From a virus, in IMG/VR virus record IMGVR_UViG_3300025849_000032, positions 3,129 through 67,128 of that record: DNA of 64,000 nt, one strand, 5' to 3'. Position numbers and translations under genes: made by a program. Each line of letters begins with the position of its first letter. Position 1 is the stretch's first letter. The notes under the pieces are model-generated. The model saw only the letters and a program-made list of their open reading frames with translations. It ran no database searches and had not been told where the DNA came from. Shown here one piece after another: positions 8,922 through 50,540 of the stretch.

Positions 8922-10088
8922 ATGGTAGAAAATGAAAACAATACGGTTGACGAAACCGTAGATCAAGAGGTGACTAAAGTTGATGTGTCAAAGTTTAAAA
9001 GCAGTGACAACGACGATGTTATCAAAGTAGATTTAAGTAAACCACTAACCAATGAAACTGAAGAAACAACAGCTGACCCAGCAGGAGTGGTGGGAGGCAA
9101 TGAAAACGCCGGAGCTGCAGAAGAGCAAGAAGAGGTACAGCCGCAAGGAGAAGTACAAGAAACAGAAGCATCAGTACTAGAAGAAGTAACAGACGAAGAG
9201 GAAGAAGACATAGAGGAACAAGTTGAAAAAGCTGTTACAGAGTCTGAAGCTACTGGAAGTCCTTTACCAGAGAATATTCAAAAGTTAGTTGACTTTATGG
9301 AAGAAACTGGTGGAGATATAAACGATTACGTAAGTTTAAATAGAGATTTGTCTAACTTAGATAACTCTGAGATACTAGACGAATACTATAAGAAAACTAA
9401 ATCTCACTTATCAGCATCTGAAAGAGAGTTCTTACTAGAGGATAAGTTTGGTTTTGACGAAGACATAGATGACGATAAAACAATACGATCAAAAAAAATC
9501 GCTTTAAAAGAGCAAGTTGCTGAAGCGAAAGCCTATCTAGACGGGCAAAAGTCTAAATATTACGAAGAGATCAAAGCTGGAAGTAAGCTCACAAGTGAGC
9601 AAAGTAAAGCCGTAGATTTCTTCAACCGTTACAACAAGGAATCTGAAGAAAATAAGAAGCTTACAGACTCAACCAAGAAAGTTTTTCAACAAAAAACTGA
9701 CAATCTATTTAACAGCAAGTTCAAAGGTTTTGACTACAATGTTGGAGAAAAGAAATATAGGTTTAATGTTAAGAACGTAGATCAGGTTAAACAAACCCAA
9801 AGTGATCTGAATAACTTTGTGCAAAAGTTTTTGAACGAAGACAATCAGATGAGTGACGCTAAGGGCTATCACAAGTCTTTATTTACAGCAATGAATGCAG
9901 ATGCCATAGCTCAACATTTTTACGAGCAAGGTAAAGCAGACGCAGTTAAAAGCAATGTAGCTGATGGTAAAAACATTAATGTAGATCCTAGGGGCATGCA
10001 TGGAGGTGATCAACCTGGTGGTTTAAAGGTTAGAGTATTAGGTGAAGACTCTAATGATTTCAAGTTTAAAATTAAAAAAAGAAAATAA
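8922..10088 (+). CDS. Capsid scaffolding protein (probable)
   Basis: Very acidic disordered N-terminus and helical body, located between portal and capsid. Confidence 0.65.
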   Translation: MVENENNTVDETVDQEVTKVDVSKFKSSDNDDVIKVDLSKPLTNETEETTADPAGVVGGNENAGAAEEQEEVQPQGEVQETEASVLEEVTDEEEEDIEEQVEKAVTESEATGSPLPENIQKLVDFMEETGGDINDYVSLNRDLSNLDNSEILDEYYKKTKSHLSASEREFLLEDKFGFDEDIDDDKTIRSKKIALKEQVAEAKAYLDGQKSKYYEEIKAGSKLTSEQSKAVDFFNRYNKESEENKKLTDSTKKVFQQKTDNLFNSKFKGFDYNVGEKKYRFNVKNVDQVKQTQSDLNNFVQKFLNEDNQMSDAKGYHKSLFTAMNADAIAQHFYEQGKADAVKSNVADGKNINVDPRGMHGGDQPGGLKVRVLGEDSNDFKFKIKKRK

Positions 10089-26515: not shown

Positions 26516-29500
26516 GTGATGAAGAAATACAACTTGAATGGCAGGGTCATATCAGTAAGACCTGAGCATGAACAACAATTTTTAGAAAATAATCCTACTG
26601 CGACTCTAGTAGTGGGAAATCAAGGGGACTCCAATCAGAGCGCGAACGTGGAGTCTCAGACATCAGCGCAAAATCCACAACAAGAGAGTACGGAATTAAA
26701 ATCGGTAGATGGTTCTTCGGAGTCACAAGAAGAGCTTAGTTGGAGTGAAGGCTTAATTGAGTTCGCTAAGGGCTTTGCTGACCCTGACGAATACTCTCAA
26801 GCTTATGATTTTATTTCAGAAGTACCAGGTAATATAGTCAACAGTCTAGAAGTAATGTTAGAATCTGTCAACAATGCTATGATGGATGCTAACAAGAGAG
26901 TTGGTGAAGCTACTGGTATGTTTGATGCTTTAGAAAGCTTGAGTGACTATGATAAGGGTTCTACATCTGAACTTATAGATAAAGAGATAATAAAGAGCTA
27001 TAATAACATAGATAAAATAAAGGCCGAAAGAGGTGATACTGGTAAGGGTTTTATAAAAGGTTTGAAGGGTGAGGGATTCGCAGATGTGATCGGTGCTACA
27101 TCATCATTTATAGCTGGTACACTAGAAACTATTATACCAGCTATGCTAACTAGAGGTACGTCTTTATTTCCTCAAATAGTAGCCCCAATGTATACGGAGT
27201 ATAATGCAACTAAGGCGAAAGCTTTGTATGGTGACAACGAAGAGGCTATAGAGAAACTTGTTGAAAATGATGAGTTAGAAATAATGGTACCTTTAGTTCT
27301 AGGTACCGCAGCAGTTGGTTTGGAAAAGGTCGGGTTGGAAGGTATAACTAAGTACGCTTTCGGAAAGAAAACAGCTAGCAATTTAACAATTAAATTACTA
27401 GGTACTATGAGTACTGAAGGTACTACTGAATGGGCTCAGAGTGGTATAGAAAAATTCAGCAGTTCAATTGCAGAGCAGAAAGATATTACACAAGCTTCAG
27501 CTGACGCCTGGGATCACTTGCTTAGTGAGGAAGGAGCCGAGGCTTTTTTATCAGGCTTTATTGGTGCAGGTGGTTCTGCTGCTGGAGGTAGAGCTATAAA
27601 TAGAGCATTCACCAATGACGCTGAATCTTTAAATACACTCAACAATGTAGCTAATGAAATATCTAGCCTAAATGAGAAGAAGCAACTCACTAAAAATAAG
27701 GTAGCAAGAAAAGCGATTCAGACTAGAATAGATGATTTGTCTTCTAAGCTAAAAACGTATGTAGAAAATAATAGAGGCTTAAAGAATTACATAACAGAAG
27801 AACAAAGATCTAGTTTGATAAATTTAATGGAGAATAAAGATGACTTAACTAGTCAAATCTCTGATCTTCAAAAAGAGCTAGATGCTGGTAGAATAACTGG
27901 CAAAGAGTTTGACGACTCCACAAAAGGATTAAGCGACAAAATAAAAAGCATAGACACTAGTATATTTGATATAAAGCAAGAAGCTGTTAAAATTCAGTCA
28001 TCTAAACTTGTTGAAAAGGTAAAAACAAAAATATCAAGCTTAGGTTTAAAAGGTAGTATAGAAGAATTAACATCTAAAGAGATAGAAGACTTAGACTTAG
28101 GATTTGAAAAAACAGAAGATGGTAAATTTGTATTAGATAAAGAAGGTAATAAAATAAAAAACTCTAAGTCCATATCTACAGAGTATGGAGCTATAGTACA
28201 GAACCTTGATGGCAGCTTTAAGATAATAATAAATAAGGATAAACCAGCAATTGGTACAGCCGCTCATGAGTTCTTACATGTTGTATTGGCAAAAACTTTA
28301 GGGGAAAACCAAAGTATTGCAGCTAAAATAGCTAGTGCTTTGAACGAGCATGTTAACACTTTAAAAGGAGATCAATCAGTAATGAGAGATCGATTAGACA
28401 GAGCTTATGGTGATTCTGAATACTATAATGAAGAAACTATAACAGTTATGTCTGAAAGTATACTTGACGGGACATTGAAGTTTGACGATGGATTTTTTAC
28501 TAAAATAGGAGATTTTGTTAGACAATTCCTTCAAGAAAAAGGTTTTAAGGAAATAGAATTAAATACAGGTAAGGATGTATATAATTTTATAAAGGACTTT
28601 AACAAAAGTGTACAATCAGATAAATTTAACAAAGCTTTTGCTGACGTAGCTAAAGAAGGAGTTAAAGGTAGTTTAGCCAAAGAGGGTAGTGTAGCTAAGG
28701 AAGGTGTTAAACCTAAAGCTAATGACACTGATTCTACTATAAAGAAATCTGCTGATGTTAAACCAGAAGTAGACGAGCTAGGTAGTATGGGCTGGACTAA
28801 GGATACTTGGAAGAGTCAAGGTGCCGATTTAGCGATAGCTGAAATGCAAGCTAACAAAATGCTAGATGGTCTTATAGCTGCTAAAATGAAAGGTGGTTTA
28901 AGAGATGGTAGCAATGATATTAAAAAAGACTTTATATCTAAAGTCTATGCAGAGCTTACTTCACATGTTAAGAACTTCGACCCAGAGAGTAACGATAGTT
29001 TATTCGGATGGGTTAACTCACAGATAAGTAACAAGGCAGGTAACGTATATAACAGAGAATATAAAGACAAGTCTCTTGAAAGAGCCGTTGACATAGATGC
29101 TACAACTTCTGAAGGAGCTCCTCTCGTGCAGATAGAAGCCGATACAGATGTTTTAATGGAAGCTATTGATGAAATAGGTTTAGATGAAACAGAAGTTGAA
29201 GAGAGGTCACGATTACGACGTGATATAAGATTAGATGGTAAGATGATGCAGACGGTTCGTAATGCTGTTATCAAAACGTTTGGTACTAAGTTACCTAACG
29301 TAGACTCTAAGAAATTTAGAACTGCATTAGAGAAAGCATTTAGAACTGAACTTAAAAAACCTTTACAAGATTTAATGGGTGGTAGATCTGAGTATGATTT
29401 ATTCCTACGTAACCATGCTAAAGCTATAATCAAAGCTTTTCCAGTGGAGACTCTAGTTCAAATGGAGCGTAACTTAAAACCTGAGCAGAGAATATTCACA

Positions 29501-32500
29501 GAGTCTAGACGTATTACTAAGCCAACTGAGGTTGATGAATTAATAAGTGAAGGTAAATTACCTAAGGATACTAATAGAACTTCTGGTCCTCAATTACACA
29601 CTAAGAAATCTTTTCCTGGTGTAGAAAAAGTAATGGCTTACTTTAGAGGTAAGGACATGGAGACTGTTCTTGGTTATAAGGTTGGAGCATCGACATTAGG
29701 GACTAGAAAAGATAAACTGGCAATGGAGCTTGGCGTTGAGCTTGCTTTTGATGCTACAGCTGAGACTATACAAAATCCTGAGGTTGCTGAGAAAAGACAG
29801 ATGATACTTGAGCTTCAAGGCATAGAGCAATTAGAAAATGAGCTAGCTGTTATTGGCAAGCAAATAGATAGAGATCCTAGTATTAAGTTTAGTAAGAAAG
29901 GTAATATAGCTAAAGACTTTTACGGTGACGTTATGGATGGTGGTATGACTGAAAACTCTGTAAGAGTAGCAGCTAACAAACATTATCCAGATAGTAATAA
30001 ATCTGCTTTAAATAAAATAGTAAAACAAACGTTAAAGAAGGTTGGTATTGTAATAGAACGTGACGAAGTCCTACAAGGTAAACTAAAAGAGATAAGCGGT
30101 AAAACCAAGGTAGATGTACTATTAGAGATTGACGCTCAAGATAATTTTAAGAAGGGTGTTAAAAATGCTTTAAGAGGATTACTTGAAGCTGAGAGTAATG
30201 GTAAGGCTATAGACCCTGGTACTCTAGCTAATACTGTAAAAGGATTGAATGCCCAAAGAAACCACTTAGTTAATGTGGTAGGAAGCCTAGTAGAAACAGA
30301 AGGTTTAGTTAAAGGTGTTGAAGTTGTTATAGCTCACACTCAGGCAATGTATGCTGGTGCTGGTAAAGCAGGAGACGGTGGACTTATGCCTCACAAACCT
30401 GGTGGGCAGATAATACCAACACCTAATTGGAACGGTGATAACGGACTTAAATGGAAAGTTTATACCCAAGCTGATGTGAATGCAGGAAGAGTACCTAAAG
30501 GTAAAAAGATAGGTGACTTTAAGTTAGACAGTAAAGGGAGAAAAATATCTAGAGATAACAGACAGCAGGCTACTAATGGTGTTGAGGATTTTGTAGCGTT
30601 AATAAATCAAGGTTTACCTAAGGGTACTATACTTACCAACCCTAGTAAAGGTAAGTTTGTTTTAACTGATGCTAAGACTGGGGTTAAAACAGACTTGAAT
30701 ACTAGTTTGCATGGAGAATCTTCGGCTTCTCTTTTTTCTGATATGAAAAGAAAAGGTGTTAAGCAGACATTTAAAGATAGAAAGCAAGCATCATTGGATG
30801 CTAGAAAAGTAACTAAAGTAGTACTAGACTTAGCTTGGAGTAAAATAAATAAAGGTGAAATGACAGCTGGAGACTTTGGCTTACTAGTCATGAGTATTGG
30901 TTCGTCTATGAATTCACCACTAAGAAGATCCGCTTACGCCGACAGGGTTCCTTCTAACTACAAACAACTAATTGCGAAGTACGGACCTAAAGCTGTAGGT
31001 AAACTTTTCCAATATGAACATGGAACACCTAAGGAAGCTGTAGCTACTAAGATAATACAGTCCTACCTTGATACAGGTAAGATGAGTGATAAAGTTTGGG
31101 ATAATTACACAGTACAGGTAATACATAAAGCGCTTGATAGAATAATAGATGCATCAGGACATAAATATACTGAAAGAATTGATGGTCAACCTAGAGCTTT
31201 CAATGCTCAGACTATAGCATTAGCAGTAGACTTGAGCAGCAAAGATTTTAATGAGTTGGCCCCTCTTGAAAGTTTAGATCCTAGCGATACTGAGGTTATG
31301 GGTAAGAACTGGTTGGAGGTTGTTGACTTGCTTAGAAATAAAGTAGAGTTATCTCCTAACGTTTTATCTAGAGCTGGTAAAGGTGCTAGAACTATGAAGT
31401 GGTCTAAGGATGCTGGAACTAAAGGTATGTCTACGTTTGACTTTGACGAGACTTTAATTATAGATGGTGAGAACTTTATAACAGCCACTGATCCTGTAAC
31501 TGGTAAAGAGCTTAAGCTTAGTAGTGGTGAGTGGCCTATTAAAGGACCTGGTCTTGCTGCTGACGGTTTTACGTTTGACTTCTCTGACTTTGTTAATGTT
31601 AGAGGTGGGACAGACGGGCCACTGCTTCAAAAGATGAAGAATCAAGTAAAGAAATACGGTAATAAAAATGTCTTTGTTCTTACAGCTCGTATGCAAGATG
31701 CAGCTGGACCTATACACGGTTGGTTAAAGAGTAAAGGTGTTGATATACCTTTTAAAAATATCACTGGTCTAGGCGATGGTAGAGGTGAAGCTAAGGCTGA
31801 ATGGATGCTAGATAAGTTCGCAGAAGGTTACAACGACATGTACTTTGTAGATGATGCAATGCCTAACGTAGATGCAGTTAAAAAAGTGTTAGATCAATTA
31901 GACATAAAATCTAAAGTAGTTCAAGCTAAAATTAAGTTTAGTAAAGATGCTAGCAAGGACTTTAATGATATGCTCGAAAGAAATAAAGGTGTTGCATCTA
32001 GCGATGTAGTATCCGCTGCTAGAGCTAAGATACGTGGTAAACAAGTTAGAGGCACTTTCTTTGTACCACCTTCGGCTGAAGATTTTAAAGGACTTATATA
32101 TAGCTTCTTAGGTAAGGGTAAGCAAGGTGACCAAGACTTGAGATGGTTTAAAGAAAACCTTTTCGACCCTTTCTCTAAAGCTACAAGAGAAATGGACTCA
32201 GTAAAACAGAAGATGACTGAGGAGTATAACGCTATAAAGAAGGCTTTTCCAGATACTATAAAAGGTTTATCTAAGAAAATAGCAGGTACGGACTTTACTT
32301 TAGATAATGCTATAAGAGTTTACTTATGGAACGAAGCTGGTATAGAGGTTCCTGGGTTGTCTGAAAAAGAAGTTAACGCATTGTGGAGTTCTGTTAAAGC
32401 AGACCCTAAAAGTGAGGCTTTCGCTCAAGCACTTAGTGCTATGTCTAGACAGGCCGATGGTTACTTATCTCCTAATAATCATTGGACAGCTGAGACTATA

Positions 32501-34243
32501 GCTTCCGACTTAGCTAATATTGTAAACAAAGTTAACAGAGCTGATTATCTAGCCGAGTGGATAGAGAGTAAAGATTTAGTATTCTCTAGCGACAACTTGA
32601 ATAAAATAGAAGCTATATATGGTACTAACTTTAGAGAAGCTCTCGAGGACATGCTGTATGCTATGGAGATTGGTAGTAATAGACCTACAGGTAAAGATAA
32701 AGATGTTAACAAGTTTTTAAACTGGATCAATGGCTCTGTTGGAGCTGTGATGTTCTTTAATACTAGGTCCGCAGTGCTACAGACTTTGTCTACTGTTAAC
32801 TTCTTGAACTTTGAAGATAATAATATATTCTCAGCTGCTAAAGCATTTGCTAATCAAAAGCAGTTCTGGTCTGACTTTTCTATGATATTTAACTCTGACA
32901 TGCTAAAACAAAGACGTGCAGGGTTAAAAATAGATGTATCAGCTAACGAACTAACTGAAGCTTTCTCTAAAGGTAAGAGTAAGACTGAAGCTATTATAGC
33001 TCATCTACTTCAATTAGGTTTTACACCTACACAGTTAGCGGATAGCTTCGCTATAGCTATGGGTGGTTCAACGTTCTATAGAAACAGAGTTAAGAAATAT
33101 TTAAAAGAAGGTAAGTCTCAGAAAGATGCAGAGTCTCAAGCGTTTTTAGATTTCCAAGAGATAGCAGAAGAGACACAACAGTCTTCTAGACCTGACCTTA
33201 TATCTAAACAACAGAGAGGAGTTCTTGGTCGTATAATACTTGCATGGGCAAATACTCCAATGCAGATGACTAGACTAACTAAGAAAGCTTTATCTGACTT
33301 AGTAAATAGAAGAGGAGATACTAAAGCTAATATATCTAGAATTATATACTACGGTGTTGCTCAGAACATCATATTTGGTACGCTTCAAACTGGTCTTGCT
33401 TTCTTAGCATTTGGCTCTGAAGAAGAAGAGGAGAAGACTGATGCCAAACAGTTACGTATGGTAAATGGTGTATTCGATACTTTACTTAGAGGTACTGGAG
33501 TTTGGGGAGCTGCTGCTTCTACATTGAAGAATATTATAATGCAGTTACACGAAGAGCTTGGTAAAGGCTTTGGCAAGAAAGACTGGTCTCGTATTAGTCA
33601 GAAAATATTTGATTTATCTCCACCACTCGGTACTAAGCATAGAAAGATAATGAATGCCATAAAGACATATGACTATAATAAAGATGTTATAGAGAAAATG
33701 GATCATGGTATTAATAACCCTGGCTGGAACGTATTTACTAATGTAGTCGAAGCTATGACTAACGCTCCTATTGCTAGAGTACTTAATAAAGCTCAGAACC
33801 TGAAGCTAGCAATGCAAGCTAATATAGAACCTTGGCAAAGAATAGCTATTGGATTAGGTTGGAGTGCTTGGAGTGTAGGTGTTGAAGATCAAGAAATCAA
33901 AGATGTTAAATTAGAGGTTAAACAAGATAGAGCTGAAAAGAGTAAGGAAAGAGCTAAAGAAAAGAAAGCTAAGAACAATGCTGATAAGCAAAAAGAAAAA
34001 GAATCTAAAGGTCTTAAAAAGGTTAGATGCTCAGGCATTAAATCTGATGGTAATAGATGTAGTATTAGAGTAGAAACTAAAAATAAATCTGCTAAGTGCA
34101 CATACCATAAAGCTTTTAAGCCTGGTGGAGATTCAGATGGCGATGGTAAAAAAGAATACAGATGTAAGGCTTCTACCTCTTCGGGTAACAGATGTAAGAA
34201 TAGAACTGAAAATAAAAACAAAAAGTGCTATGCGCATCAATAG
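26516..34243 (+). CDS. Giant multidomain (polyvalent) virion/ejection protein: HExxH protease, sigma-like segment, possible His-Me nuclease-like segment, HAD domain, helical C-terminal region, Cys/His repeats
   Basis: AAHEFLH (28265-28279); NFDPESNDSLFGWVNSQI; FDFDETL..LTAR..K..FVDD; two CxxxxxxGxRC...CxxH repeats; start GTG 26516 or ATG 26519. Confidence 0.8.
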   Translation: MMKKYNLNGRVISVRPEHEQQFLENNPTATLVVGNQGDSNQSANVESQTSAQNPQQESTELKSVDGSSESQEELSWSEGLIEFAKGFADPDEYSQAYDFISEVPGNIVNSLEVMLESVNNAMMDANKRVGEATGMFDALESLSDYDKGSTSELIDKEIIKSYNNIDKIKAERGDTGKGFIKGLKGEGFADVIGATSSFIAGTLETIIPAMLTRGTSLFPQIVAPMYTEYNATKAKALYGDNEEAIEKLVENDELEIMVPLVLGTAAVGLEKVGLEGITKYAFGKKTASNLTIKLLGTMSTEGTTEWAQSGIEKFSSSIAEQKDITQASADAWDHLLSEEGAEAFLSGFIGAGGSAAGGRAINRAFTNDAESLNTLNNVANEISSLNEKKQLTKNKVARKAIQTRIDDLSSKLKTYVENNRGLKNYITEEQRSSLINLMENKDDLTSQISDLQKELDAGRITGKEFDDSTKGLSDKIKSIDTSIFDIKQEAVKIQSSKLVEKVKTKISSLGLKGSIEELTSKEIEDLDLGFEKTEDGKFVLDKEGNKIKNSKSISTEYGAIVQNLDGSFKIIINKDKPAIGTAAHEFLHVVLAKTLGENQSIAAKIASALNEHVNTLKGDQSVMRDRLDRAYGDSEYYNEETITVMSESILDGTLKFDDGFFTKIGDFVRQFLQEKGFKEIELNTGKDVYNFIKDFNKSVQSDKFNKAFADVAKEGVKGSLAKEGSVAKEGVKPKANDTDSTIKKSADVKPEVDELGSMGWTKDTWKSQGADLAIAEMQANKMLDGLIAAKMKGGLRDGSNDIKKDFISKVYAELTSHVKNFDPESNDSLFGWVNSQISNKAGNVYNREYKDKSLERAVDIDATTSEGAPLVQIEADTDVLMEAIDEIGLDETEVEERSRLRRDIRLDGKMMQTVRNAVIKTFGTKLPNVDSKKFRTALEKAFRTELKKPLQDLMGGRSEYDLFLRNHAKAIIKAFPVETLVQMERNLKPEQRIFTESRRITKPTEVDELISEGKLPKDTNRTSGPQLHTKKSFPGVEKVMAYFRGKDMETVLGYKVGASTLGTRKDKLAMELGVELAFDATAETIQNPEVAEKRQMILELQGIEQLENELAVIGKQIDRDPSIKFSKKGNIAKDFYGDVMDGGMTENSVRVAANKHYPDSNKSALNKIVKQTLKKVGIVIERDEVLQGKLKEISGKTKVDVLLEIDAQDNFKKGVKNALRGLLEAESNGKAIDPGTLANTVKGLNAQRNHLVNVVGSLVETEGLVKGVEVVIAHTQAMYAGAGKAGDGGLMPHKPGGQIIPTPNWNGDNGLKWKVYTQADVNAGRVPKGKKIGDFKLDSKGRKISRDNRQQATNGVEDFVALINQGLPKGTILTNPSKGKFVLTDAKTGVKTDLNTSLHGESSASLFSDMKRKGVKQTFKDRKQASLDARKVTKVVLDLAWSKINKGEMTAGDFGLLVMSIGSSMNSPLRRSAYADRVPSNYKQLIAKYGPKAVGKLFQYEHGTPKEAVATKIIQSYLDTGKMSDKVWDNYTVQVIHKALDRIIDASGHKYTERIDGQPRAFNAQTIALAVDLSSKDFNELAPLESLDPSDTEVMGKNWLEVVDLLRNKVELSPNVLSRAGKGARTMKWSKDAGTKGMSTFDFDETLIIDGENFITATDPVTGKELKLSSGEWPIKGPGLAADGFTFDFSDFVNVRGGTDGPLLQKMKNQVKKYGNKNVFVLTARMQDAAGPIHGWLKSKGVDIPFKNITGLGDGRGEAKAEWMLDKFAEGYNDMYFVDDAMPNVDAVKKVLDQLDIKSKVVQAKIKFSKDASKDFNDMLERNKGVASSDVVSAARAKIRGKQVRGTFFVPPSAEDFKGLIYSFLGKGKQGDQDLRWFKENLFDPFSKATREMDSVKQKMTEEYNAIKKAFPDTIKGLSKKIAGTDFTLDNAIRVYLWNEAGIEVPGLSEKEVNALWSSVKADPKSEAFAQALSAMSRQADGYLSPNNHWTAETIASDLANIVNKVNRADYLAEWIESKDLVFSSDNLNKIEAIYGTNFREALEDMLYAMEIGSNRPTGKDKDVNKFLNWINGSVGAVMFFNTRSAVLQTLSTVNFLNFEDNNIFSAAKAFANQKQFWSDFSMIFNSDMLKQRRAGLKIDVSANELTEAFSKGKSKTEAIIAHLLQLGFTPTQLADSFAIAMGGSTFYRNRVKKYLKEGKSQKDAESQAFLDFQEIAEETQQSSRPDLISKQQRGVLGRIILAWANTPMQMTRLTKKALSDLVNRRGDTKANISRIIYYGVAQNIIFGTLQTGLAFLAFGSEEEEEKTDAKQLRMVNGVFDTLLRGTGVWGAAASTLKNIIMQLHEELGKGFGKKDWSRISQKIFDLSPPLGTKHRKIMNAIKTYDYNKDVIEKMDHGINNPGWNVFTNVVEAMTNAPIARVLNKAQNLKLAMQANIEPWQRIAIGLGWSAWSVGVEDQEIKDVKLEVKQDRAEKSKERAKEKKAKNNADKQKEKESKGLKKVRCSGIKSDGNRCSIRVETKNKSAKCTYHKAFKPGGDSDGDGKKEYRCKASTSSGNRCKNRTENKNKKCYAHQ

Positions 34244-40975: not shown

Positions 40976-41433
40976 TGAAATTAAGTAAAAACTTTGCGTT
41001 GTCTGAGGTAACACACAGCAACACAGCTAAAAGACTAGGGATAAAGAATGAGCCGACTAAAGAACACCTGGATAACTTGCAAATGCTTATACGAGATCTT
41101 ATACAGCCTATTCGTGATGGGATTGGTCCTATCAGGGTTAGTAGTGGTTATCGTAACCCGGAACTCAATCGTGCAATTGGTGGCAGTCATAAGTCGCAGC
41201 ATTGCAAAGGTGAGGCATTGGACCTCCAGTTTTGGAAGAGGGGGAAGATGAGTAACAAAGTTATTTACGATTGGATACTAAAGTCAGGGTTAGATTTTGA
41301 TCAGATGATAAATGAATTTGATTTTGCCTGGATACATATATCCTTTAAAGAGCAAGGTAATAGAAGGCAAGTGCTTGAAGCCTATAATGATAATGATGGA
41401 GATACTAAATACAAATATGCAGATGTCAGATAA
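40975..41433 (+). CDS. Endolysin, peptidase M15A family
   Basis: SSGYR..ELN.AIGG...SQHCKGEALD and WIHIS zinc-ligand motifs. Confidence 0.9.
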   Translation: MKLSKNFALSEVTHSNTAKRLGIKNEPTKEHLDNLQMLIRDLIQPIRDGIGPIRVSSGYRNPELNRAIGGSHKSQHCKGEALDLQFWKRGKMSNKVIYDWILKSGLDFDQMINEFDFAWIHISFKEQGNRRQVLEAYNDNDGDTKYKYADVR

Positions 41434-42082
41434 CAAACAAAAAAAACAACCTAAAAATAATATAAAATTCAATATATCACTATCGGATGAGCAGAAAAAA
41501 GCTAAGGAAAATATAATCAACCATGCTTACAGTTTTGTAGTAGGTAGAGCTGGTAGTGGTAAGACTTTATTGGCAGTGCAAGTTGCTCTAGACATGTTCT
41601 TTAAAAGGCAATACAACAAGATAGTCATAACTAGACCTACTGTATCTACAGAAGATAACGGATTTCTACCTGGAAGTGAAAAAGAAAAGCTAGAGCCTTG
41701 GCTCGTACCAATTATGTCGAATATGCGTAAGGTGTATAACAAGCCTGAGAAGATTCAGAAGATGGTTGAAGAAGAGGAAATAGAGCTCGTCTCACTAACT
41801 CACTTTAGAGGAAGAACGTTTGACAACGCTGTAGTTATTGTTGATGAGTTTCAGAACTTAACTAAAGCTCAATTACGTATGGCGTTAGGTAGATTAGGTA
41901 GAAACTCTGTAATGATATTCTGTGGGGACAACCAACAAGTAGACTTGAAAGACTCATTTAACTCTGCTATAGATGACATAGCGAAAATGGAACCTAGTGA
42001 GCATGTGTACAAAGTTGTACTAGAAGATAACCATAGGCATAAAGCCATAAACGAAGTACTAAAACTATTAACAGGATATTAA
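41417..42082 (+). CDS. phoH: PhoH-family ATPase (start 41417 or 41423)
   Basis: GRAGSGKT, ITRP, GFLPG, RGRTF, IVDEFQN, LGRLG, GD..Q.D. Confidence 0.92.
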   Translation: MQMSDNKQKKQPKNNIKFNISLSDEQKKAKENIINHAYSFVVGRAGSGKTLLAVQVALDMFFKRQYNKIVITRPTVSTEDNGFLPGSEKEKLEPWLVPIMSNMRKVYNKPEKIQKMVEEEEIELVSLTHFRGRTFDNAVVIVDEFQNLTKAQLRMALGRLGRNSVMIFCGDNQQVDLKDSFNSAIDDIAKMEPSEHVYKVVLEDNHRHKAINEVLKLLTGY

Positions 42083-42093
42083 ACTAAATTAAC

Positions 42094-42945
42094 ATGGCAA
42101 CATTAACAACAGCATTAACGCTAACAGGAACTGCAGCAGACTTTGGAGCTGCTTTATCATTGAGTCAAAGTAATGCTTTTACTTTCACACATACTAATGG
42201 TATAGCAAAGAAAAAACTAACATCGACATCTAAGACTTGTCAAATATTTGTAAACGATGGTGACGGTGACGTTGCTGATGTTACTACTAGAGAAGGTAAG
42301 TACATAGATATAACAGATAACCACGGATTGAATAGAAGATACGTATTTACTACTGCAGATGGTGCTGGAGCTGCAACAGGTACTATACTAGCCTCAGGTA
42401 CAGATATAGGTTCTGGTGATATAACCACTAGATTACATTTAGTAGGAGGTATTGCTGTACAGATAACTGATGGTGATGAAGAAAGAGATATTTTAGAACA
42501 ATTAAAAGATGCTATAAACCACGCTAATGGGCACGCTGGGTCTATAGTAGCAACAGCAGTAGCTGCAGAAGCTAATGGGCCTCAGTCTACTACGTTAACT
42601 AATAGAGATTCTTCTACACCGCCTTTTGTTGACAATAAAAATGCAACTTGGCAAGACTTACATTCTACTACTAATAGTTTAGCTGACCACGTTGTACTAA
42701 TTAAGAAAGGTGAATATGCATCTCCCTCTATGTGTTACATTAGAAACACTGCAGCATTCGGCGATGGTACAGCTAATTGTATATACGCATACTACGACGG
42801 TGGTGGATCAGACACTGGTAGTCATTATAAAATCCAAGGTGGTCAATTTGCCATATTCCCGAGCGAGAGTCAAGAGACTCTTTACGCTTACACTTCTACT
42901 TCTGGTACTGTTGTTGAATTTATGGTGTTAGGTACTGAAGCATAA
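42094..42945 (+). CDS. Putative structural protein
   Basis: Thr/Ala/Gly-rich beta-type ORF coupled (TAATG) to esterase gene. Confidence 0.6.
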   Translation: MATLTTALTLTGTAADFGAALSLSQSNAFTFTHTNGIAKKKLTSTSKTCQIFVNDGDGDVADVTTREGKYIDITDNHGLNRRYVFTTADGAGAATGTILASGTDIGSGDITTRLHLVGGIAVQITDGDEERDILEQLKDAINHANGHAGSIVATAVAAEANGPQSTTLTNRDSSTPPFVDNKNATWQDLHSTTNSLADHVVLIKKGEYASPSMCYIRNTAAFGDGTANCIYAYYDGGGSDTGSHYKIQGGQFAIFPSESQETLYAYTSTSGTVVEFMVLGTEA

Positions 42946-45900
42946 TGGGTGGTTTAGGTTTAGATTACGCAGGCGTACAGGTTGTAGCTGAACCAGCGGG
43001 GTTTGGTGGACCTAATGCTATAATATTACTAGTAGGACAGAGTAACATGGTAGGGTACTCTTCTAGTGTTGTTGCTGCTAGTGCCACAAATCACACTAGT
43101 AATTTTGATACAACCATAGCGTATCCTTCCAGTGTAGGATCTAGTAGTTTTGGACCTTTTAATGTGTCACAGCTAAGTGATGGGGTTCTTAATAACGTTT
43201 TTACACAGCCTAAAGCAAGTGTAACATCAGGTACTTTTACTGACTATGTAATACAAGCAGCTACACCGTTAGATCATTGGGAGGGAGGAGGTGTTACGCA
43301 TGGTCTTGGATTAGCGAAAAGCTTCGTCCATGAAGCAACAACATCTCCTTTACAACAATATGGATTTCTTAAGGCTAATGGTCAGCGCAAGAATATCACG
43401 CTTATACCAGCTGCCTGGGGAGGTACTGGTTTTAAAAGTTATTACACAAGTAATGATCACGTAGGCAATGAGAAAGATACTATAACATGGTTAGCCCCAA
43501 ACTCTTTTGGGTATAATGACAACTACGCAGATGTGGTTGGTATTACTCTTGAACCTAGAAAAGCGGGTAAGCTGTATGAGCATGCTGTAACCGCTGCTAA
43601 TTCGTTGCTAGCTCTACCAGAGCTCGAGGGTTGTAACCTAGTTGCAATATTGTGGCATCAAGGAGAGACCGATAGGATTAACTCTCAGTTTGCTAGGCAC
43701 TTCTACTATATGATACAGAAGATGAGGCATGACATAACAGGTGCTACTCAAGACACACCTTTCATAATGGGTGAAGTAGCCCAAACATATCCAAACTGGT
43801 CTAAATGGCTACAAGCGGTCCACGAACATACTCCTAATGTAAATTACAACACAGCTTTTGTTAGAAGTAATGCCGCACCTGATAGTAATAACCAAGACTT
43901 AGATACTTATGATCAAACTCACTTTGTTGCCAACGACGTCGATATATTAGGTAAAAGATATTTCGCAGCTTTTAAAGATGTTAAAGACGGTAATAATGCA
44001 TACCCAGCTTTAAATAGATTAACTCAACATGAGATGCACTTCTCGTATTACCTCGATGAGATTAAAGATGTAGATACAGACGCCTTTCATTTACTACTCG
44101 GTTTAGGTAATCAAATGTTATTTAACCACGACAACACAAGGCAGTTTGCGCTTACACATCCACCTATTTACGATGATTCTAATGCAAAAATTAGCGGTCA
44201 TCAATCAGTGACTTATCCTGAAAGTATAGATAATTTTGAACCTGTCGCACTTACTTCATTAGGCAGAAGTAACTCTGCTCAGCAAACGCCTGCCGCTCAG
44301 ATAAGTACTGATCATTTTGCTTACGCTAAAATACAAGGTGATAATGATGGTGATCAAACCGGTGGTATAAAGCTTGGTGTTTATGAGTTTGGTAGTAAAG
44401 AGAAGGTACAAAGTGCTAATTCCCTCCCTGAAAACAGATTTAGAGGACTTAACACTTTCTCTTTAAACATAGTGTTTAGGTATGACTCTAGTACGCCACA
44501 GAATCTTGATGGCATACCAGGTAAAGGAGATGGTTCTATTTTAGTAGGTAATTTGCAAGCAGGTAATGCAATAAGTAATCCAGGTGGGTTTGCTTTTTAT
44601 ATAGCTAGACATGGAGATAGTGCTGGTAAGTTACATTTTAATTGTGGTGACTTTAAGGTACCTTATGGAAATGGAGAAGATTCAGGTAGAAATTATATAG
44701 CTGTATCACCCGTTTTAACACATGGTAAGTTCTACTATGCTAGTGTTGATTATACTAGAGAAGGTCCTGTTATTTATTTTGCGGGAGATGATGGGGTTTT
44801 AACTAGAAATACATTATTAAACGAACCAAACTTTATCTCTCATACTCCCGAAAGAGTTCCTTCTTATAGGGAGATAATATTAGGTCGCGGTTATAATATA
44901 AATACTCACTACCAAGGTGTTTCTGAAGTTGCTTACGTTGGTTGGAGCAGTGGTCTTGTATCTAGCTCCACCGATAGGAGTTATCTTAAATTTCAAGGTG
45001 GGGTACTACAAAGTCTATCACAAGCCATACTTAGTAATGCATACCAAGATATATACTTTGGTGATAAGTATGTAGATCATGCAGTAGCCATGACCGATAA
45101 CAAAGCTCATCAAAGTTACATAGTAGATTTAATGCATAGTAGAGGTATAAATAATATATCCTACTCAGACGATGAGTTCCAGGAGCCAATAGAGCCAGAT
45201 CCTATACTAGGTTGCACAGATTCAAGTGCATTGAATTATAACCCTAGTGCTACTCAAAATGATGGTTCTTGTGAGTACGATATATATGGTTGTACAGATC
45301 CTAATGCTACTAATTATAACTCTAATGCTACTCAAGATGACGGGACTTGTACATATCCAGAACCAGAGGATATATTAGGTTGTACTGATTCAGAAGCGCA
45401 GAACTACAACCCGGATGCTACTGCAGACGATGGTTCATGTACATACCCACCTCCACCTGCTCCTGACCCACCCACAGTGCCAGCACACGGTGACGTTTGG
45501 TTAGCAGCTGATAGTGAAGGAACTATTGAAAATGATGGGTTTGTAATAACAAGAACACCCGCAGGTAATGGTTTCGAAGGTTTCATACTATTAAAAACAG
45601 TTGCTCATAGTTCTATAGTAGGAATAGAACTTTATGGAAATATTATAGGTGGTACTGATGCAAGTGATAACGATAGTGACGGTACGATTGATGAGGCTGG
45701 TGAACTAAGCCACAGAGGTACGTGGGATGAAGCTATTCAGTGGGAGTTAGACGAGATTGAAAGTGGTTCAAAGAAAAGACTACCAAATGAAAAAGAGTCT
45801 AAAGAATTGATAGATGCTTTTAATGGCACACAACAATCAAGCGGTGGTAGTATTAGTTACCCTTGGGTATACACCGGCCCCATAAGTGGTGCTTGGCAAT

Positions 45901-46256
45901 TTTCAACAAATGCCAGCAACAACGCTTTATTTAGTTTTGTTAAAGCATCTTATCCGTATGGTGGACAGATATTTTGGTCAGGCTATGAAGCCAGCGATAC
46001 TCAAGCCAATGCTATTTATCTAAAAGATATGGGTAGCGTAGGCACTACTGCTAGCAATAACGCTGAAGCATATATAACAAGTTATGATAAAACAGGTGAT
46101 ACTTATCTGCACGTTAGAGCTATAGAAAGGTATAGCACTAATACTTTAGACCCTAACCAAGACCCAACTGGTGGTAGTTCTGGATCTATTAGAGCTACAA
46201 CTTCTAGTGGTAGCAGTAGTAGTAGCGGTAGTGTTACTCCAATGGGAGGTTATTAG
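42945..46256 (+). CDS. SGNH/SASA-type carbohydrate acetylesterase fused to LamG-like domain and GCTD repeats; probable virion depolymerase/receptor-binding protein
   Basis: LLVGQSNM, AWGGT, LWHQGETD, DQTH catalytic blocks; three GCTDxxAxNYNxxATxxDGxC repeats. Confidence 0.8.
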   Translation: MGGLGLDYAGVQVVAEPAGFGGPNAIILLVGQSNMVGYSSSVVAASATNHTSNFDTTIAYPSSVGSSSFGPFNVSQLSDGVLNNVFTQPKASVTSGTFTDYVIQAATPLDHWEGGGVTHGLGLAKSFVHEATTSPLQQYGFLKANGQRKNITLIPAAWGGTGFKSYYTSNDHVGNEKDTITWLAPNSFGYNDNYADVVGITLEPRKAGKLYEHAVTAANSLLALPELEGCNLVAILWHQGETDRINSQFARHFYYMIQKMRHDITGATQDTPFIMGEVAQTYPNWSKWLQAVHEHTPNVNYNTAFVRSNAAPDSNNQDLDTYDQTHFVANDVDILGKRYFAAFKDVKDGNNAYPALNRLTQHEMHFSYYLDEIKDVDTDAFHLLLGLGNQMLFNHDNTRQFALTHPPIYDDSNAKISGHQSVTYPESIDNFEPVALTSLGRSNSAQQTPAAQISTDHFAYAKIQGDNDGDQTGGIKLGVYEFGSKEKVQSANSLPENRFRGLNTFSLNIVFRYDSSTPQNLDGIPGKGDGSILVGNLQAGNAISNPGGFAFYIARHGDSAGKLHFNCGDFKVPYGNGEDSGRNYIAVSPVLTHGKFYYASVDYTREGPVIYFAGDDGVLTRNTLLNEPNFISHTPERVPSYREIILGRGYNINTHYQGVSEVAYVGWSSGLVSSSTDRSYLKFQGGVLQSLSQAILSNAYQDIYFGDKYVDHAVAMTDNKAHQSYIVDLMHSRGINNISYSDDEFQEPIEPDPILGCTDSSALNYNPSATQNDGSCEYDIYGCTDPNATNYNSNATQDDGTCTYPEPEDILGCTDSEAQNYNPDATADDGSCTYPPPPAPDPPTVPAHGDVWLAADSEGTIENDGFVITRTPAGNGFEGFILLKTVAHSSIVGIELYGNIIGGTDASDNDSDGTIDEAGELSHRGTWDEAIQWELDEIESGSKKRLPNEKESKELIDAFNGTQQSSGGSISYPWVYTGPISGAWQFSTNASNNALFSFVKASYPYGGQIFWSGYEASDTQANAIYLKDMGSVGTTASNNAEAYITSYDKTGDTYLHVRAIERYSTNTLDPNQDPTGGSSGSIRATTSSGSSSSSGSVTPMGGY

Positions 46257-46309: not shown

Positions 46310-47935
46310 TTAACCTTCACATGAAGAACATTCTAATATGTTCCTACTAAAAGCCTGAGCTGAGCTCTGACTAAATTGGTAGTATAAGGTTTTAACGCCT
46401 TCTCTCCAAGCGTATATATAAAGCTGATTTATATCTTTAGCTGGTACACTTGGATCGATCATTAAGTTTAGACTCTGAGACTGATCTATATACTTCTGTC
46501 TTTGAGCGGCTTGTAGCACTAATTCCTTGGGTGCTATTTCTACAAACGACTTAAATACTTCTTTAGTCGGAAAATCTAAATGCTGAACAGAACCATCACG
46601 CTTCAGTATCCCTTCCCAAACATCATCCGTATTAAGATTATATTTCTCAAGTTCTTCTTGTAAGAAAGTATTTTTATATACAGTCTTTGTCTTAGCCAAG
46701 TCTTTGATAAAGTAATTAGATTTAATAGGCTCGATCCCCATACTGACAGCGCCATGAATAAAGGAGCTAGATTTTGTTGGTGCGATTGCCATAAGAGTTG
46801 TGTTAGCAAACCCGTCACGTAAAGACCTATACCCTTTGTATTCGTAGAGCCATTTAGATGCGTTCTCTGAACGTTCCTTAATTGTCTTGAATATTTCATT
46901 GTTTAAAGCTTTAGTCTGCATAGAATCAAACTCTAGCAGCTTTGATTGTAATAAAGAATGATAACCTAAAACACCGATACCAATTGCCCTGTGTTGCTTA
47001 GCAAATCTATTCGCTCTAGCTAACCCAGGTAATGTACCGGACTTAGTTATAAACTCATCCATAACAGCATTAAGGAATTGAGTATATACTTCTACAGCAT
47101 CTGTATGTTTAATCTCATCCCAGTGTAGTAAGTTTATAGAACCTAAACAACAAACGAAAGAATTAAAACTATCGGTAGGTAGCTGTATTTCAGAGCACAA
47201 GTTTGATGCTGTTATATCTAACCCAAGTTCTTTATACGGTGAGTTGTTGTTACTGTTGTCTTTGAACATAATATATGGAAAGCCAAACTCAGACCTTCTT
47301 TGTATTACTTTAGCCCATAACTTACGTTTATCAGGGTCACCAGCAATCATATCTGTCATCCATTGGTCTGTTATAGTAATACCATACTGCAAATTCTGTA
47401 TAGGATTACCTTCGGTACCAATATCTAAAAATTCATTTGCATCATTGTGCTCTATAGGTAAGTAAACAGCACAAGCACCTCGACGCGCTTCAGCTTGTTT
47501 ACAAACATCGACAGTAGTATCATACATGCGGGCATAATGTACAGGGCCATCAGCTTTACCGCCAGTCGATATTGACGCACCACGTGGTCTTATATTTCCG
47601 AGGTATGCTGATGTTCCTCCTCCGTATTTAGACATCATACCGATCTCCCTAGATGCGTTCAGTATCGAATCTAAATCATCGTCAACGTTTGAACCATAAC
47701 AACTGATAGGTAAGCCTTTGTTTTTACCAAAGTTTATCCACACAGGAGTAGACAAAGAGTAAAACCCTCGGGCCATATAATCTTCAAACTTCTGTGCAAA
47801 CCCTTCAATCTTTAAATGCTTTTCAGCTGTGTTAGCTATATCCTTTATTCGTTGCTCAGGCGTTTCTGTTATATATCCTCTAGATAAAAACAGTCTTGAC
47901 TCATCATTGAGCCAGTAGTATTTTTTATATTCCAT
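46310..47935 (-). CDS. nrdA: Class I ribonucleotide reductase alpha subunit (no ATP cone)
   Basis: PISCY, GGG, SNLCSEI, AIAPT, DQSQS, KTLYY, C-terminal CSSCEG. Confidence 0.95.
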   Translation of the reverse strand: MEYKKYYWLNDESRLFLSRGYITETPEQRIKDIANTAEKHLKIEGFAQKFEDYMARGFYSLSTPVWINFGKNKGLPISCYGSNVDDDLDSILNASREIGMMSKYGGGTSAYLGNIRPRGASISTGGKADGPVHYARMYDTTVDVCKQAEARRGACAVYLPIEHNDANEFLDIGTEGNPIQNLQYGITITDQWMTDMIAGDPDKRKLWAKVIQRRSEFGFPYIMFKDNSNNNSPYKELGLDITASNLCSEIQLPTDSFNSFVCCLGSINLLHWDEIKHTDAVEVYTQFLNAVMDEFITKSGTLPGLARANRFAKQHRAIGIGVLGYHSLLQSKLLEFDSMQTKALNNEIFKTIKERSENASKWLYEYKGYRSLRDGFANTTLMAIAPTKSSSFIHGAVSMGIEPIKSNYFIKDLAKTKTVYKNTFLQEELEKYNLNTDDVWEGILKRDGSVQHLDFPTKEVFKSFVEIAPKELVLQAAQRQKYIDQSQSLNLMIDPSVPAKDINQLYIYAWREGVKTLYYQFSQSSAQAFSRNILECSSCEG

Positions 47936-48921
47936 TAAAATAAATCATCTGCGGTTATACTTTTGCTTTTCTTATTGTAGTCAACTGATTTTTTATAGAA
48001 GAAATCACCTTCTTTTGTTGCTGTAATTTCAACATCAAACCACTTGGTACTAGCGATAGCTTCTTGGTCGATTTCGAATAAAGACTCATAGCCTATTTTA
48101 TTTAAAGAGTTATTAAATCTATTTTTTATAAACTGCTTTATAGTATCTTTACTTAAGAAGCTAAGCTCTCCAGTTTCAAATATCCAATCAAGCACTTCAC
48201 ATTCTGCTTTGTAGGCTTTTGTACATGCTGACATAATCAACTGTTCAAATTCCTCATCAAACCAGTCAGGGTTTTCTTGCTTAACTATATTAATAATCTC
48301 AGCTCCGAAATTACCGTGTATCTCCTCTTCTTTTGATGTTGCTTCAACGACATTAGATATGCCTTTGAGTACGTTATTGTTCTTGTTAAAAGACATCATA
48401 ATTAAGAACTGGCTAAACAAACTAACGTGTTCTATAAACAAAGAAAATAAAAGTACAGATTTAGTATACATCTTGTTGTCACGAGATCTAGTACCATCTA
48501 AGTATTTAGTTAAGTACTTTATTCTACCTGCAATAGCAGGAACTTCAACTACAGTTTCAAAGTCTTTTTCTAAGCCTAGTATTCTAATAAGCCTAGCATA
48601 AGCATCTTTATGTCTAACTTCAGACTCAGCGAACGTCATACCAACATCACCAACCTCGGTGATAGGCATACGCTTGTACATATCTGCCCAGAAAGTTTTA
48701 ACACTTACCTCGATCTGTGCTATTGAAAGCATAGTCTTTTTTATAACATCTCGTTCGTGATCAGTTATATTAACTTTGAAGTCTTGTATATCATCAGTAA
48801 AGTTAAACTCTGTATCTATCCAATAAGAATGCCGAATGGCATCCTTATAAGACAGAAGTTGAGGGTATTCATACGGAAGTATGTTTACCCTCTTCTCAAA
48901 TATATTATTCTTCTTCATCAA
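47935..48921 (-). CDS. nrdB: Ribonucleotide reductase beta subunit
   Basis: ESEVRHKDAY, FIEHVSLFSQF, KEEEIH, DFFYKK..DY. Confidence 0.95.
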   Translation of the reverse strand: MMKKNNIFEKRVNILPYEYPQLLSYKDAIRHSYWIDTEFNFTDDIQDFKVNITDHERDVIKKTMLSIAQIEVSVKTFWADMYKRMPITEVGDVGMTFAESEVRHKDAYARLIRILGLEKDFETVVEVPAIAGRIKYLTKYLDGTRSRDNKMYTKSVLLFSLFIEHVSLFSQFLIMMSFNKNNNVLKGISNVVEATSKEEEIHGNFGAEIINIVKQENPDWFDEEFEQLIMSACTKAYKAECEVLDWIFETGELSFLSKDTIKQFIKNRFNNSLNKIGYESLFEIDQEAIASTKWFDVEITATKEGDFFYKKSVDYNKKSKSITADDLF

Positions 48922-49751: not shown

Positions 49752-50540
49752 CTAGCTTAGTGTTTCATTAAATTTAACAAATGTACCGTTCTCCATAACG
49801 CCTACTCTATTTTTAATCTCATCGTACGCACCTTGAATACAGTCTTCTATATTCCAACCTTTTAAAGCAGCTAGATTAGTAAGCACTACGATCATATCAC
49901 CGATCGCATCATGTATTTCAGCATCATCTTTTTTCAGTAAGCCTTCAGCTAGTTCGCCAGCCTCTTCCATAAGCTTCATGTACTGAGTTTCAGGGTTACC
50001 GCTTACTAATATACCTTTTAATGCAGCCCATTTTCTTATCTTTTCAAAGATCTCTGTTGGTGCAACCTTAACAGGTTCTTTACTTGTATTATCATCGTCC
50101 CAAGAGTTGATGAAGTTTCGCATAGCCTTGTTATATATGTAACATCTGTCTTCGTTGAATTGAGATGTTACTGCATTACCCACTATCCACATGGCTAATC
50201 TAGTAGACATCTGCTGATCACCGATCATCATATCCATATTATCTAGTAATCTACCTTTTAATTTGTTTAAAGGTACAGGGAAAGTAGTAGTTTGTTCTGT
50301 TACGTTAATTCTCATAGTTGGTTTATTACAGTTTAAATTTTTATAAGGTGTTTGATCTATTGGGTAACCGTACTCAGCTTGCATCAAGCGTTCCATATCA
50401 GATGCGATATTTATGTTATCGGTTTCTAATATAATTTGATATTCGCTAGGATCGTAACCTTGTTGATCTTCAACTCTACGTTTTAGATCTTTAGTTACAC
50501 CAATCTTTTTTCCTGGTATGTGGTATACTTTGTACATCAT
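49752..50540 (-). CDS. GIY-YIG-like N-terminal domain fused to MazG-like nucleotide pyrophosphohydrolase
   Basis: YKVYHIPGKKIGVTKDLKRR; C-terminal KLMEEAGELA...DAIGD...AYDEIKNR. Confidence 0.75.
   Translation of the reverse strand: MMYKVYHIPGKKIGVTKDLKRRVEDQQGYDPSEYQIILETDNINIASDMERLMQAEYGYPIDQTPYKNLNCNKPTMRINVTEQTTTFPVPLNKLKGRLLDNMDMMIGDQQMSTRLAMWIVGNAVTSQFNEDRCYIYNKAMRNFINSWDDDNTSKEPVKVAPTEIFEKIRKWAALKGILVSGNPETQYMKLMEEAGELAEGLLKKDDAEIHDAIGDMIVVLTNLAALKGWNIEDCIQGAYDEIKNRVGVMENGTFVKFNETLS

Follow-up and report, generated by a model that had tools for sequence, protein, structure and literature searches.

A giant open reading frame (ORF) of 2575 residues was found at 26516..34243 on the plus strand of a 64,000-base stretch (hereafter, the window) of the IMG/VR virus record IMGVR_UViG_3300025849_000032, and its product was found to contain the short motif [IM]K[FWK]S four times downstream of a zincin-like metallopeptidase domain of the HExxH type. 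The best reading of this arrangement is that of a polyprotein which is cleaved at the motif by its own zincin, and it is given, on the sequence and model evidence below, a probability of about one half. The polyprotein reading was drawn from the presence of an intact embedded peptidase, a site in each downstream linker, whole units between the sites, swapped cargo and a gene that is never split.

Junction motif and domain layout of the giant protein

The zincin motif AAHEFLH had been placed at 28265 by the initial annotation, and an HExxH was found there, at residue 584 and inside the ORF. The four motif copies that it had listed were found as well, namely IKKSA at residue 742 (28739-28753), IKFSK at residue 1123 (29882-29896), MKWSK at residue 1627 (31394-31408) and IKFSK at residue 1806 (31931-31945). 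In 2000 shuffles of the giant protein [IM]K[FWK]S was present 0.257 times on average and in none of them as many as four times, and the stricter [IM]K[FW]SK was present three times against 0.009 expected. The pattern was defined after it had been seen, so the independent test is its conservation in homologues. The first copy, IKKSA, contains neither the aromatic nor the basic residue; since the relatives were found to contain KFSR, KYSK, ILFSK, TQMSK or VKASR at this position, it is read as a degenerate member of the same junction. Over all six reading frames of the window, in open stretches of at least 60 residues, the strict motif was found three times in the giant ORF and once elsewhere, at the start of a nested 98-residue frame at 46899(-). 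No other real gene of the window carries the motif, the other candidate cargo genes included.

The giant ORF was found to contain a GTG start at 26516 followed by ATG at the next codon (26519), which may be the true start. The variable N-terminal region (residues 1-499, 26516..28012) contained no motif and one moderately hydrophobic helix at residues 254-274 (hydropathy scan), followed by the presence of the zincin-like metallopeptidase domain (residues 500-715, 28013..28660), with the HExxH at 28265-28279 and the third-ligand Glu640 at 28433-28435. Linker J1 (residues 716-746, 28661..28753) contained the degenerate IKKSA and was followed by the 'sigma-like' module 2 (residues 747-1109, 28754..29842). 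Linker J2 (residues 1110-1129, 29843..29902) contained IKFSK with a conserved KQIDRDP just before it, followed by module 3 (residues 1130-1616, 29903..31363), which is a variable cargo slot. Linker J3 (residues 1617-1637, 31364..31426) contained MKWSK, followed by the presence of the HAD phosphatase module (residues 1633-1805, 31412..31930), the J4 motif IKFSK (residues 1806-1810, 31931..31945) in the context KSKVVQAK-IKFSK, the conserved all-helical C-terminal domain (residues 1811-2480, 31946..33955) and a basic tail with two Cys3-His knuckles (33956..34240). All of these parts are on the plus strand.

Two AlphaFold2 models were built, one of residues 500-1637 (61-sequence alignment, mean predicted local distance difference test score, pLDDT, of 79.0) and one of residues 1627-2575 (65 sequences, mean pLDDT 73.9). 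All four motif copies fell in segments of pLDDT <50 between confidently predicted domains, at residues 217-247 (J1), 611-630 (J2) and 1118-1138 (J3) of the first model and residues 1-7 (J3) and 178-182 (J4) of the second. A long low-confidence stretch without the motif was found at residues 852-896 (29069-29203, +), the sole such long loop in the first model, and several shorter low-confidence segments in both models were also without the motif. The loop at residues 852-896 is acidic, holds a conserved DIDATTSEGAP and directly follows the sigma-2-like domain.

Conservation of the motif in homologues

At E<=0.001, 1884 metagenomic homologues were obtained among 7995 scored candidates, many of them from marine surveys. 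In viral contigs 217 stretches were confirmed, of which 80 were kept as loci, and each of the 80 loci contained one giant open frame of 949-4137 residues, the shortest of which are truncated at contig ends. The 201 pooled sequences comprised 193 distinct ones. The relaxed motif [ILMV][KQMR][FWY]S[KR] was present in these 193 homologues in 314 copies against 18.8 expected from composition (17-fold enrichment) and its strict K form in 249 copies against 9.1, counts which are non-independent events because the homologues are related; what matters is that the pentamer has been retained where its flanks have diverged. At least one relaxed copy was found in 148 of the 193. Natural split genes were also looked for and rejected: 118 of 120 shorter homologues begin at an internal Met within domains and two of the 120 near a motif, and they were taken to be contig-end fragments.

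The position of the motif was found to be strongly polar. In the 193 homologues 303 copies were downstream of the HExxH (363,526 residues), whereas one was upstream (171,425 of 534,951 residues). When the peptidase domain alone was used for a profile search, 1760 cluster representatives were obtained at E<=0.001, and a separate set of 140 representatives of 50%-identity clusters from this search contained 88 copies against 7.8 expected, 87 of them downstream of the HExxH and one upstream. In both sets together 390 of 392 copies were downstream of the peptidase.

At the aligned junctions 91-99% of the proteins have retained the Ser and 83-95% the aromatic residue. At J2 (111 aligned proteins) the F was present in 95% and the Ser in 99%, and at J4 (257 of 341 proteins aligned) the F in 83% and the Ser in 91%. 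Conservation of the motif at domain boundaries, which the initial annotation expected of homologues, was seen at the aligned junctions J2 and J4. A Ser that is the most conserved residue (91-99%) and always follows F, Y or W would also suit a cut that needs no protease, in which the Ser attacks the preceding aromatic-Ser bond by an N-to-O acyl shift; a comparable scission reportedly takes place at an HF|S site in Nup98. Such a scission requires a folded, bond-straining domain, whereas the motif follows three unrelated domains here and is located in low-confidence linkers. As it would also leave the invariant HExxH...E and the polarity unexplained, this explanation is considered to be very unlikely.

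Cargo cassettes between motif copies

Among 121 proteins, blastp matches were obtained for the peptidase in 90, module 2 in 112, the HAD module and the C-terminal domain in 120 each, and for the N-terminal region in 50 and module 3 in 39. The 255 high-scoring segment pairs between the query and 120 homologues were found to end at residues 1121-1160 in 77 cases and to start at residues 1621-1640 in 46 cases. At J2 the conservation covers KQIDRDPx-[IV]KFS[KR] and collapses at the residue right after motif position 5. As homology breaks at copies 2 and 3, the variable cargo slot is located exactly between two motifs, each of which is kept by its conserved neighbour. Exchange of cargo modules at the motifs, for which an alignment of homologues had been suggested, was thus observed for module 3, the swap slot being bounded by motif copies 2 and 3.

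Segments with the motif on both sides numbered 166 and formed 17 clusters, the largest of which contained the HAD module (55 segments), module-3-like segments (49) and a 376-residue unit (16) made of a Zeta_toxin/AAA_33 P-loop kinase and a HAD domain. In the homologues P0079 and P0099 two motifs were found to flank a single 376-residue unit of kinase and HAD. The kinase of P0014 (residues 1876-2026) was found to form a unit by itself behind the HAD, flanked by motifs at residues 1833 and 2111. The additional cargo, here the P-loop kinase, comes with an additional motif.

The exchange of cargo exactly between two motifs would also be expected of a DNA-level signal for cassette recombination, and a chance pattern was considered together with it. 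Chance is opposed by the shuffles, none of which reached four copies, and by the enrichment in the 193 homologues. The 88 motif instances in the loci comprised 65 distinct 15-mers, with an AGY codon for the Ser in 62 instances and a TCN codon in 26, and the use of both Ser codon families in diverse 15-mers points to selection on the protein and not on the DNA. As the N-terminal region is swapped in the absence of the motif, the latter is no general scar of recombination. Both explanations are regarded as highly improbable.

Peptidase domain and proposed cleavage

In the peptidase domain, H584, E585, H588 and E640 were found to be invariant in 61 of 61 sequences, at a mean column identity of 14% (alignment A1) or 19% (peptidase-only alignment A3). 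To judge from these residues, the HExxH helix followed by a downstream Glu as third ligand is a gluzincin signature, and the domain is predicted to be an active gluzincin-type peptidase with its catalytic residues intact. Its predicted secondary structure contained strands followed by helices. In the ESM Atlas it was matched to unnamed clusters and to a weak LPD23 lead (18% of the members of one cluster).

In the proposed mechanism the built-in peptidase would recognise h-[K/Q/M]-[F/Y/W]-S-[K/R] in the linkers and would cut at this site, be it within the capsid or once the protein has been ejected. Thermolysin-like and lethal-factor-like enzymes generally prefer a hydrophobic P1' residue, and on this ground the cut would be made before the aromatic residue, with a hydrophobic residue at P2 and the aromatic one at P1'. 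A single gene with a single packaging signal would in this manner suffice for the delivery of several independent proteins. A cleavage site of this kind predicts conserved junctions, a swapped slot, flexible linkers, a location only downstream of the HExxH...E domain and a position 2 that tends to change in concert across junctions, and all of these were found.

The motif could also be the cleavage site of another protease, a phage maturation enzyme or a host enzyme, the HExxH domain being itself an effector. The prohead proteases T4 gp21 and phiKZ gp175 are said to carry out motif-directed processing of internal or ejected head proteins, and a viral polyprotein with a cis protease gives several proteins from one translation product. 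Both systems resemble the giant protein in having a short conserved site at protein boundaries, and both differ from it in that the candidate protease is here a zincin that forms part of the substrate, the sites being present in that polypeptide only. Several ORFs of the structural block, such as 8922-10088, had no assignment and could code for such an enzyme, but no protease family was found in the structural-block ORFs that were scanned. The motif is moreover confined to the giant protein, and its strict polarity with respect to the HExxH would have to be a coincidence, so that a separate protease is distinctly unlikely. Cleavage by the built-in zincin is in line with the autoprocessing by such peptidases that is predicted for polyvalent proteins, one of which, DdrB of phage P1, is processed (PMC5512222, accessible part).

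Co-variation of position 2 and the reader of the motif

Position 2 of the motif was occupied mostly by K, with Q, M, N, S or L in some lineages, and tended to match across the junctions of one protein. Between J2 and J4 the combinations K/K, K/non-K, non-K/K and non-K/non-K were found 79, 4, 4 and 13 times, respectively (Fisher p 6.7e-10), and between J3 and J4 they were found 56, 0, 11 and 18 times (Fisher p 2.9e-11). A FastTree tree was built from the C-terminal domain of 135 of 137 selected proteins, with the motif columns excluded. In tree-independent pairs differing at J4, J2 was found to shift the same way in 4-5 of 10 and J3 in 4-6 of 7-8, and neither shifted the opposite way in any pair. 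These results are suggestive, at the level of sequence, of a common reader of the motif.

The linker location, the conservation and the concerted position 2 suit any common reader, and the motif might accordingly be an uncut linear docking element for one common partner, the modules being ordered for packing and sequential ejection while the chain stays whole. The partner would be sought among repeated sites in the portal, the tail barrel or the muzzle, or in a chaperone-like part of the giant protein itself. Short segments of the crAss001 cargo protein gp45 were observed attached to portal, tail barrel and muzzle (PMC10172136, accessible part). The peptidase would then act on host targets or on peptidoglycan, the latter being the substrate proposed for the phi24B metallopeptidase gp47 in the accessible part of its authors' account. 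Docking, however, leaves unexplained why 390 of 392 copies are downstream of the peptidase, offers no reason for a sigma-like factor and a phosphatase to stay tethered to a 675-residue structural domain, and does not suit the finding that the remaining candidate cargo genes in the window lack the motif. It is rated as rather unlikely, though it is the main alternative to self-cleavage and one to be taken seriously.

Several points weigh against self-cleavage. The Ser, which is the best-conserved residue of the motif, is not known as a typical main determinant for zincins. The relaxed motif was lacking in 45 of the 193 homologues though their HExxH is intact, most of them retaining the aromatic-Ser core at the aligned places. 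After correction for the tree, the concordance of position 2 gave a median sign-test p of 0.0625 per comparison. A crude scan of 131 proteins (88 all-basic, 27 all-non-basic and 16 mixed) gave no peptidase column that follows the position-2 class in the expected direction, so that the scan gives no ground for taking the peptidase to be the reader, a result which favours docking. The fold match of the peptidase is weak: on the 1138-residue model, the alignment program VIA-align matched it to anthrax lethal factor domain I (1j7n_A) with Z 5.1, a root-mean-square deviation (rmsd) of 4.7 and 155 aligned residues and to Certhrax (4gf1_B) with Z 5.0, and the Foldseek probability for lethal factor was 0.16. 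The match agrees with the lethal factor link given for the peptidases of polyvalent proteins in the accessible part of PMC5512222. No cultured relative was found, as neither the protein nor the gene had a tblastn or megablast match among 50,697 records of cultured phages. The giant protein of a cultured Flavobacterium phage, which is compared below, contained one chance-like motif copy in 3694 residues. Finally, the zincin-bearing proteins N4 virion RNA polymerase (vRNAP), ArdC and TraC1 are delivered uncleaved (PMC5512222, accessible part), and the presence of the domain does not therefore imply self-processing; the N4 enzyme, which has an HExxH domain and is packaged whole, also speaks for docking.

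Cargo modules, C-terminal domain and tail

The whole giant protein gave nothing above threshold against Pfam, PHROGs and LPD, and nothing usable, polymerases included, against PDB sequences (phmmer). PDB sequence profile searches with the alignments A1 and A2 gave no match, and Foldseek gave none at E<=0.001 with either of the two long models. The domain structure matches came only from VIA-align.

In module 2, residues 747-853 (28754-29074) were matched to the sigma factors 5ipl_F (Z 7.6, rmsd 2.8, 90 aligned) and 8x6g_H (Z 7.4, rmsd 2.8, 87 aligned), and region 2 of sigma factors occupied most of the top 35 rows, at Z values below 8 that are middling for helical domains. No PF04542 match was obtained in the giant protein at E<=1, nor at E<=10 in a six-frame search, and an hhalign comparison of module 2 with the phage's own sigma factor gave a probability of 0.6 and hence no support. 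The initial annotation had described the first two motif copies as bracketing a sigma-like segment; the position of the copies held, with a sigma region-2-like fold at residues 747-853 of the module at 742-1122, and support from sequence was not found.

Module 3 had no named relative, the ESM Atlas giving unnamed clusters and a 0.77 lead to the GH-E HNH nuclease family. Its end (residues 1500-1565, 31013-31210, +) was found to contain a block EH..P...NY...K.D...R in nearly all of 61 aligned sequences, with E1501 and H1502 present in at least 90% of them, and this block looks catalytic from its residue pattern.

The HAD module was found to match, as the top three of 48,161 chains, 5uj0_B (T4 Pnkp phosphatase; Z 11.2, rmsd 2.6, 120 aligned), 4xrp_A (Pnkp1; Z 11.0) and 1ltq_A (T4 PNK; Z 10.5). 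The HAD phosphatase structure matches span residues 1633-1806 and bear out the earlier statement that the last two motif copies bracket the HAD domain. The motifs I (DxDxT, residues 1642-1646), II (T/S), III (K) and IV (DD, residues 1779-1780) are represented by D1642, D1644, T1646, T1723, K1760, D1779 and D1780, and these catalytic residues were invariant or present in at least 90% of 65 sequences. Among curated families the best match was PF11019 at 19.3 bits, under its cut-off of 22.6, and no Pfam HAD family reaches its cut-off. The module is accordingly assigned by predicted fold and motifs, and not by a named Pfam family, as a putative 3'-phosphatase like that of T4 Pnkp.

The C-terminal domain was found to be the most conserved part of the family, with a mean column identity of 55% in alignment A2. 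Its fold had no PDB match by sequence profile or Foldseek, and the domain alone had no tblastn match in the 50,697 phage records even at E 1. All six cysteines of the 2575-residue protein were found within its last 71 residues (residues 2505-2574, 34028-34237, +), where a lysine-rich stretch is followed by the presence of two Cys-x9-Cys-x10-12-Cys-x2-His knuckles, C2505, C2515, C2528-x2-H and C2550, C2560, C2571-x2-H. Two knuckles were found in 34 of 65 aligned relatives, and the others may be cut by contig ends. Nucleic-acid binding and packaging are possibilities for the function of the knuckles.

A sigma-like factor in the virion would benefit a phage that relies on the host polymerase, and a Pnkp-like end-healing enzyme would fit a counter-defence role. 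The cargo is worth attention in itself, as a sigma-like module and a Pnkp-like phosphatase are present in a phage that has an ordinary sigma factor and in which no RNA polymerase was found by a weak check. Taken jointly, the observations would be compatible with a tentative scenario, possible but with the odds against it, in which a large uncultured clade of marine crAss-like podophages would have swapped the virion RNA polymerase of its relatives for a self-cutting 'starter kit' polyprotein. The motif-reading zincin would free a sigma-like factor for capture of the host polymerase, an RNA end-healer of the Pnkp type that undoes the host nuclease defence, and the cargo of the slot, and the motif would serve as a plug-and-play grammar for injected effectors.

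Comparison with known systems

The giant protein can be classed among the zincin-bearing polyvalent proteins as these are defined by Iyer et al. 2017 (PMC5512222, accessible part), since it contains a peptidase, a sigma-2-like fold and a Pnkp-like HAD, to which a P-loop kinase is added in relatives. Like the proteins of that class, it is a giant multi-domain phage protein in which unrelated enzymes are combined with a lethal-factor-related HExxH...E peptidase. Polyvalent proteins are predicted to be delivered with the DNA, perhaps with self-processing, and the theme of 'jump-start transcription' is also shared; the location of the gene in the structural block after a muzzle-like gene is the delivery context that supports this class. 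No cleavage motif is defined in the accessible part of PMC5512222, whereas the present family was found to contain a five-residue mark at every junction downstream of the peptidase.

The N4 virion RNA polymerase gp50 (PMC13434306 and PMC5512222, accessible parts) is likewise a giant ejected HExxH protein and starts early transcription. It is packaged uncleaved and is itself the RNA polymerase, whereas the giant protein contains no polymerase motif and has a sigma-like module. The cargo block gp45, gp46, gp47, gp49 and gp50 of crAss001 (PMC10172136, accessible part) resembles the present locus in the order of a muzzle-like gene, mid-sized ORFs and a giant ORF. It differs in that no sequence similarity and no DFDxD were found, and in the size of the genome, which is 67 kb here and about 100 kb in crAss001. 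By its synteny with this cargo block the giant ORF would code for a virion-packaged cargo polyprotein that is packaged and ejected. The motif DFDxD is defined for the crAss-like virion RNA polymerase of the phi14:2 gp66 type (10.1101/2020.03.07.982082, accessible part), and none was found in window open frames of at least 150 residues; the FDFDET of the giant protein is the HAD motif I and not a polymerase DFDxD. The giant protein is not a crAss-type or N4-type virion polymerase.

T4 Pnkp and Pnkp1 (5uj0, 1ltq and 4xrp) were the best structure matches of the HAD module, and the order of kinase followed by HAD in relatives is that of T4 Pnkp. The protein of the window differs in that it contains no kinase, and the sequence identity is 12-18%.

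The Flavobacterium phage vB_FspP_elemoB_14-3B (MT497068.1) has a large terminase 47% identical to that of the window and, in the same position after a muzzle-like gene, a 3694-residue 'structural protein' (MT497068.1 49797-60881; L083 7798-18882) with an HExxH at residue 1543. Its HExxH domain is weakly similar to that of the window (E 0.017) and its N-terminal part resembles that of some family members (E 9e-19). It differs in having no HAD match and no conserved C-terminal domain, and, as the motif is lacking too, the motif system appears to be specific to an uncultured clade. The elemoB phage would serve well as an outgroup and, being culturable, would allow the processing of giant proteins of this sort to be examined.

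The novelty lies in a junction motif that is defined, polar in position and linked to the exchange of cassettes. A literature search for the motif or for metalloprotease-cleaved ejection polyproteins of phages gave nothing relevant, with the qualification that the supplementary alignments of PMC5512222, a source accessible in part, might hold the family. Self-cutting of polyvalent proteins has been predicted since 2017, no recognition site being defined in the accessible part of that source, and the best-studied examples are delivered whole. The prediction becomes testable in the present family, where the candidate sites are exact, their polarity is clear and cargo has been swapped naturally in a series of homologues. 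If the motif is a cleavage site, it would give a simple boundary rule for injected effectors in thousands of metagenomic giant proteins, and a portable pair of protease and site.

Genome and gene neighbourhood

The IMG/VR record contains 67,128 bases and is rated 100% complete, and the window covers 64,000 of them. The plus strand of the window was found to contain a crAss-like structural block with the large terminase (4308-6539, +), followed by the portal (6543-8882, +) and a 1907-residue muzzle-like protein (+), the C-terminus of which matched the crassvirus muzzle domain PF25729 at 32.4 bits (cut-off 27). The muzzle-like gene was followed by ORFs of 783, 119, 158, 212 and 487 residues and then by the giant ORF. 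Other products of the block were virion structural proteins, with tail-fibre genes and a tail protein with a SASA esterase domain further on. The nearest cultured terminases were those of phages of Flavobacterium (47% identity), Cellulophaga, Tenacibaculum and Maribacter, and the hosts of this uncultured marine crAss-like podophage are probably Flavobacteriia.

A free-standing sigma factor was found on the minus strand (55163-55918, -), with matches to PF04542 (Sigma70_r2, 25.6 bits) and PF04545 (r4, 24.5 bits). Both scores exceed the respective cut-offs, and the phage is thus equipped with an ordinary sigma factor besides the sigma-like module of the giant protein. A PF00940 search of the genome for a T7-type RNA polymerase gave no match, but the control genomes were also without a match. 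The minus strand was found to code also for ribonucleotide reductase, thymidylate synthase, a primase-helicase and a ligase.

Auxiliary metabolic genes were located at 46310-48921 (-), 50537-51217 (-) and 41312-42082 (+) and comprised the large and small subunits of a class I ribonucleotide reductase, thymidylate synthase and, within the structural strand, a PhoH-like protein. One ORF at 49752-50540 (-) was found to contain a T5orf172 (GIY-YIG-like) domain together with a MazG pyrophosphohydrolase domain. The ORF at 42945-46256 (+) codes for a 1103-residue tail protein with an N-terminal domain of the SASA sialate-O-acetylesterase type (E 2e-16), which is probably a receptor-modifying tail spike.

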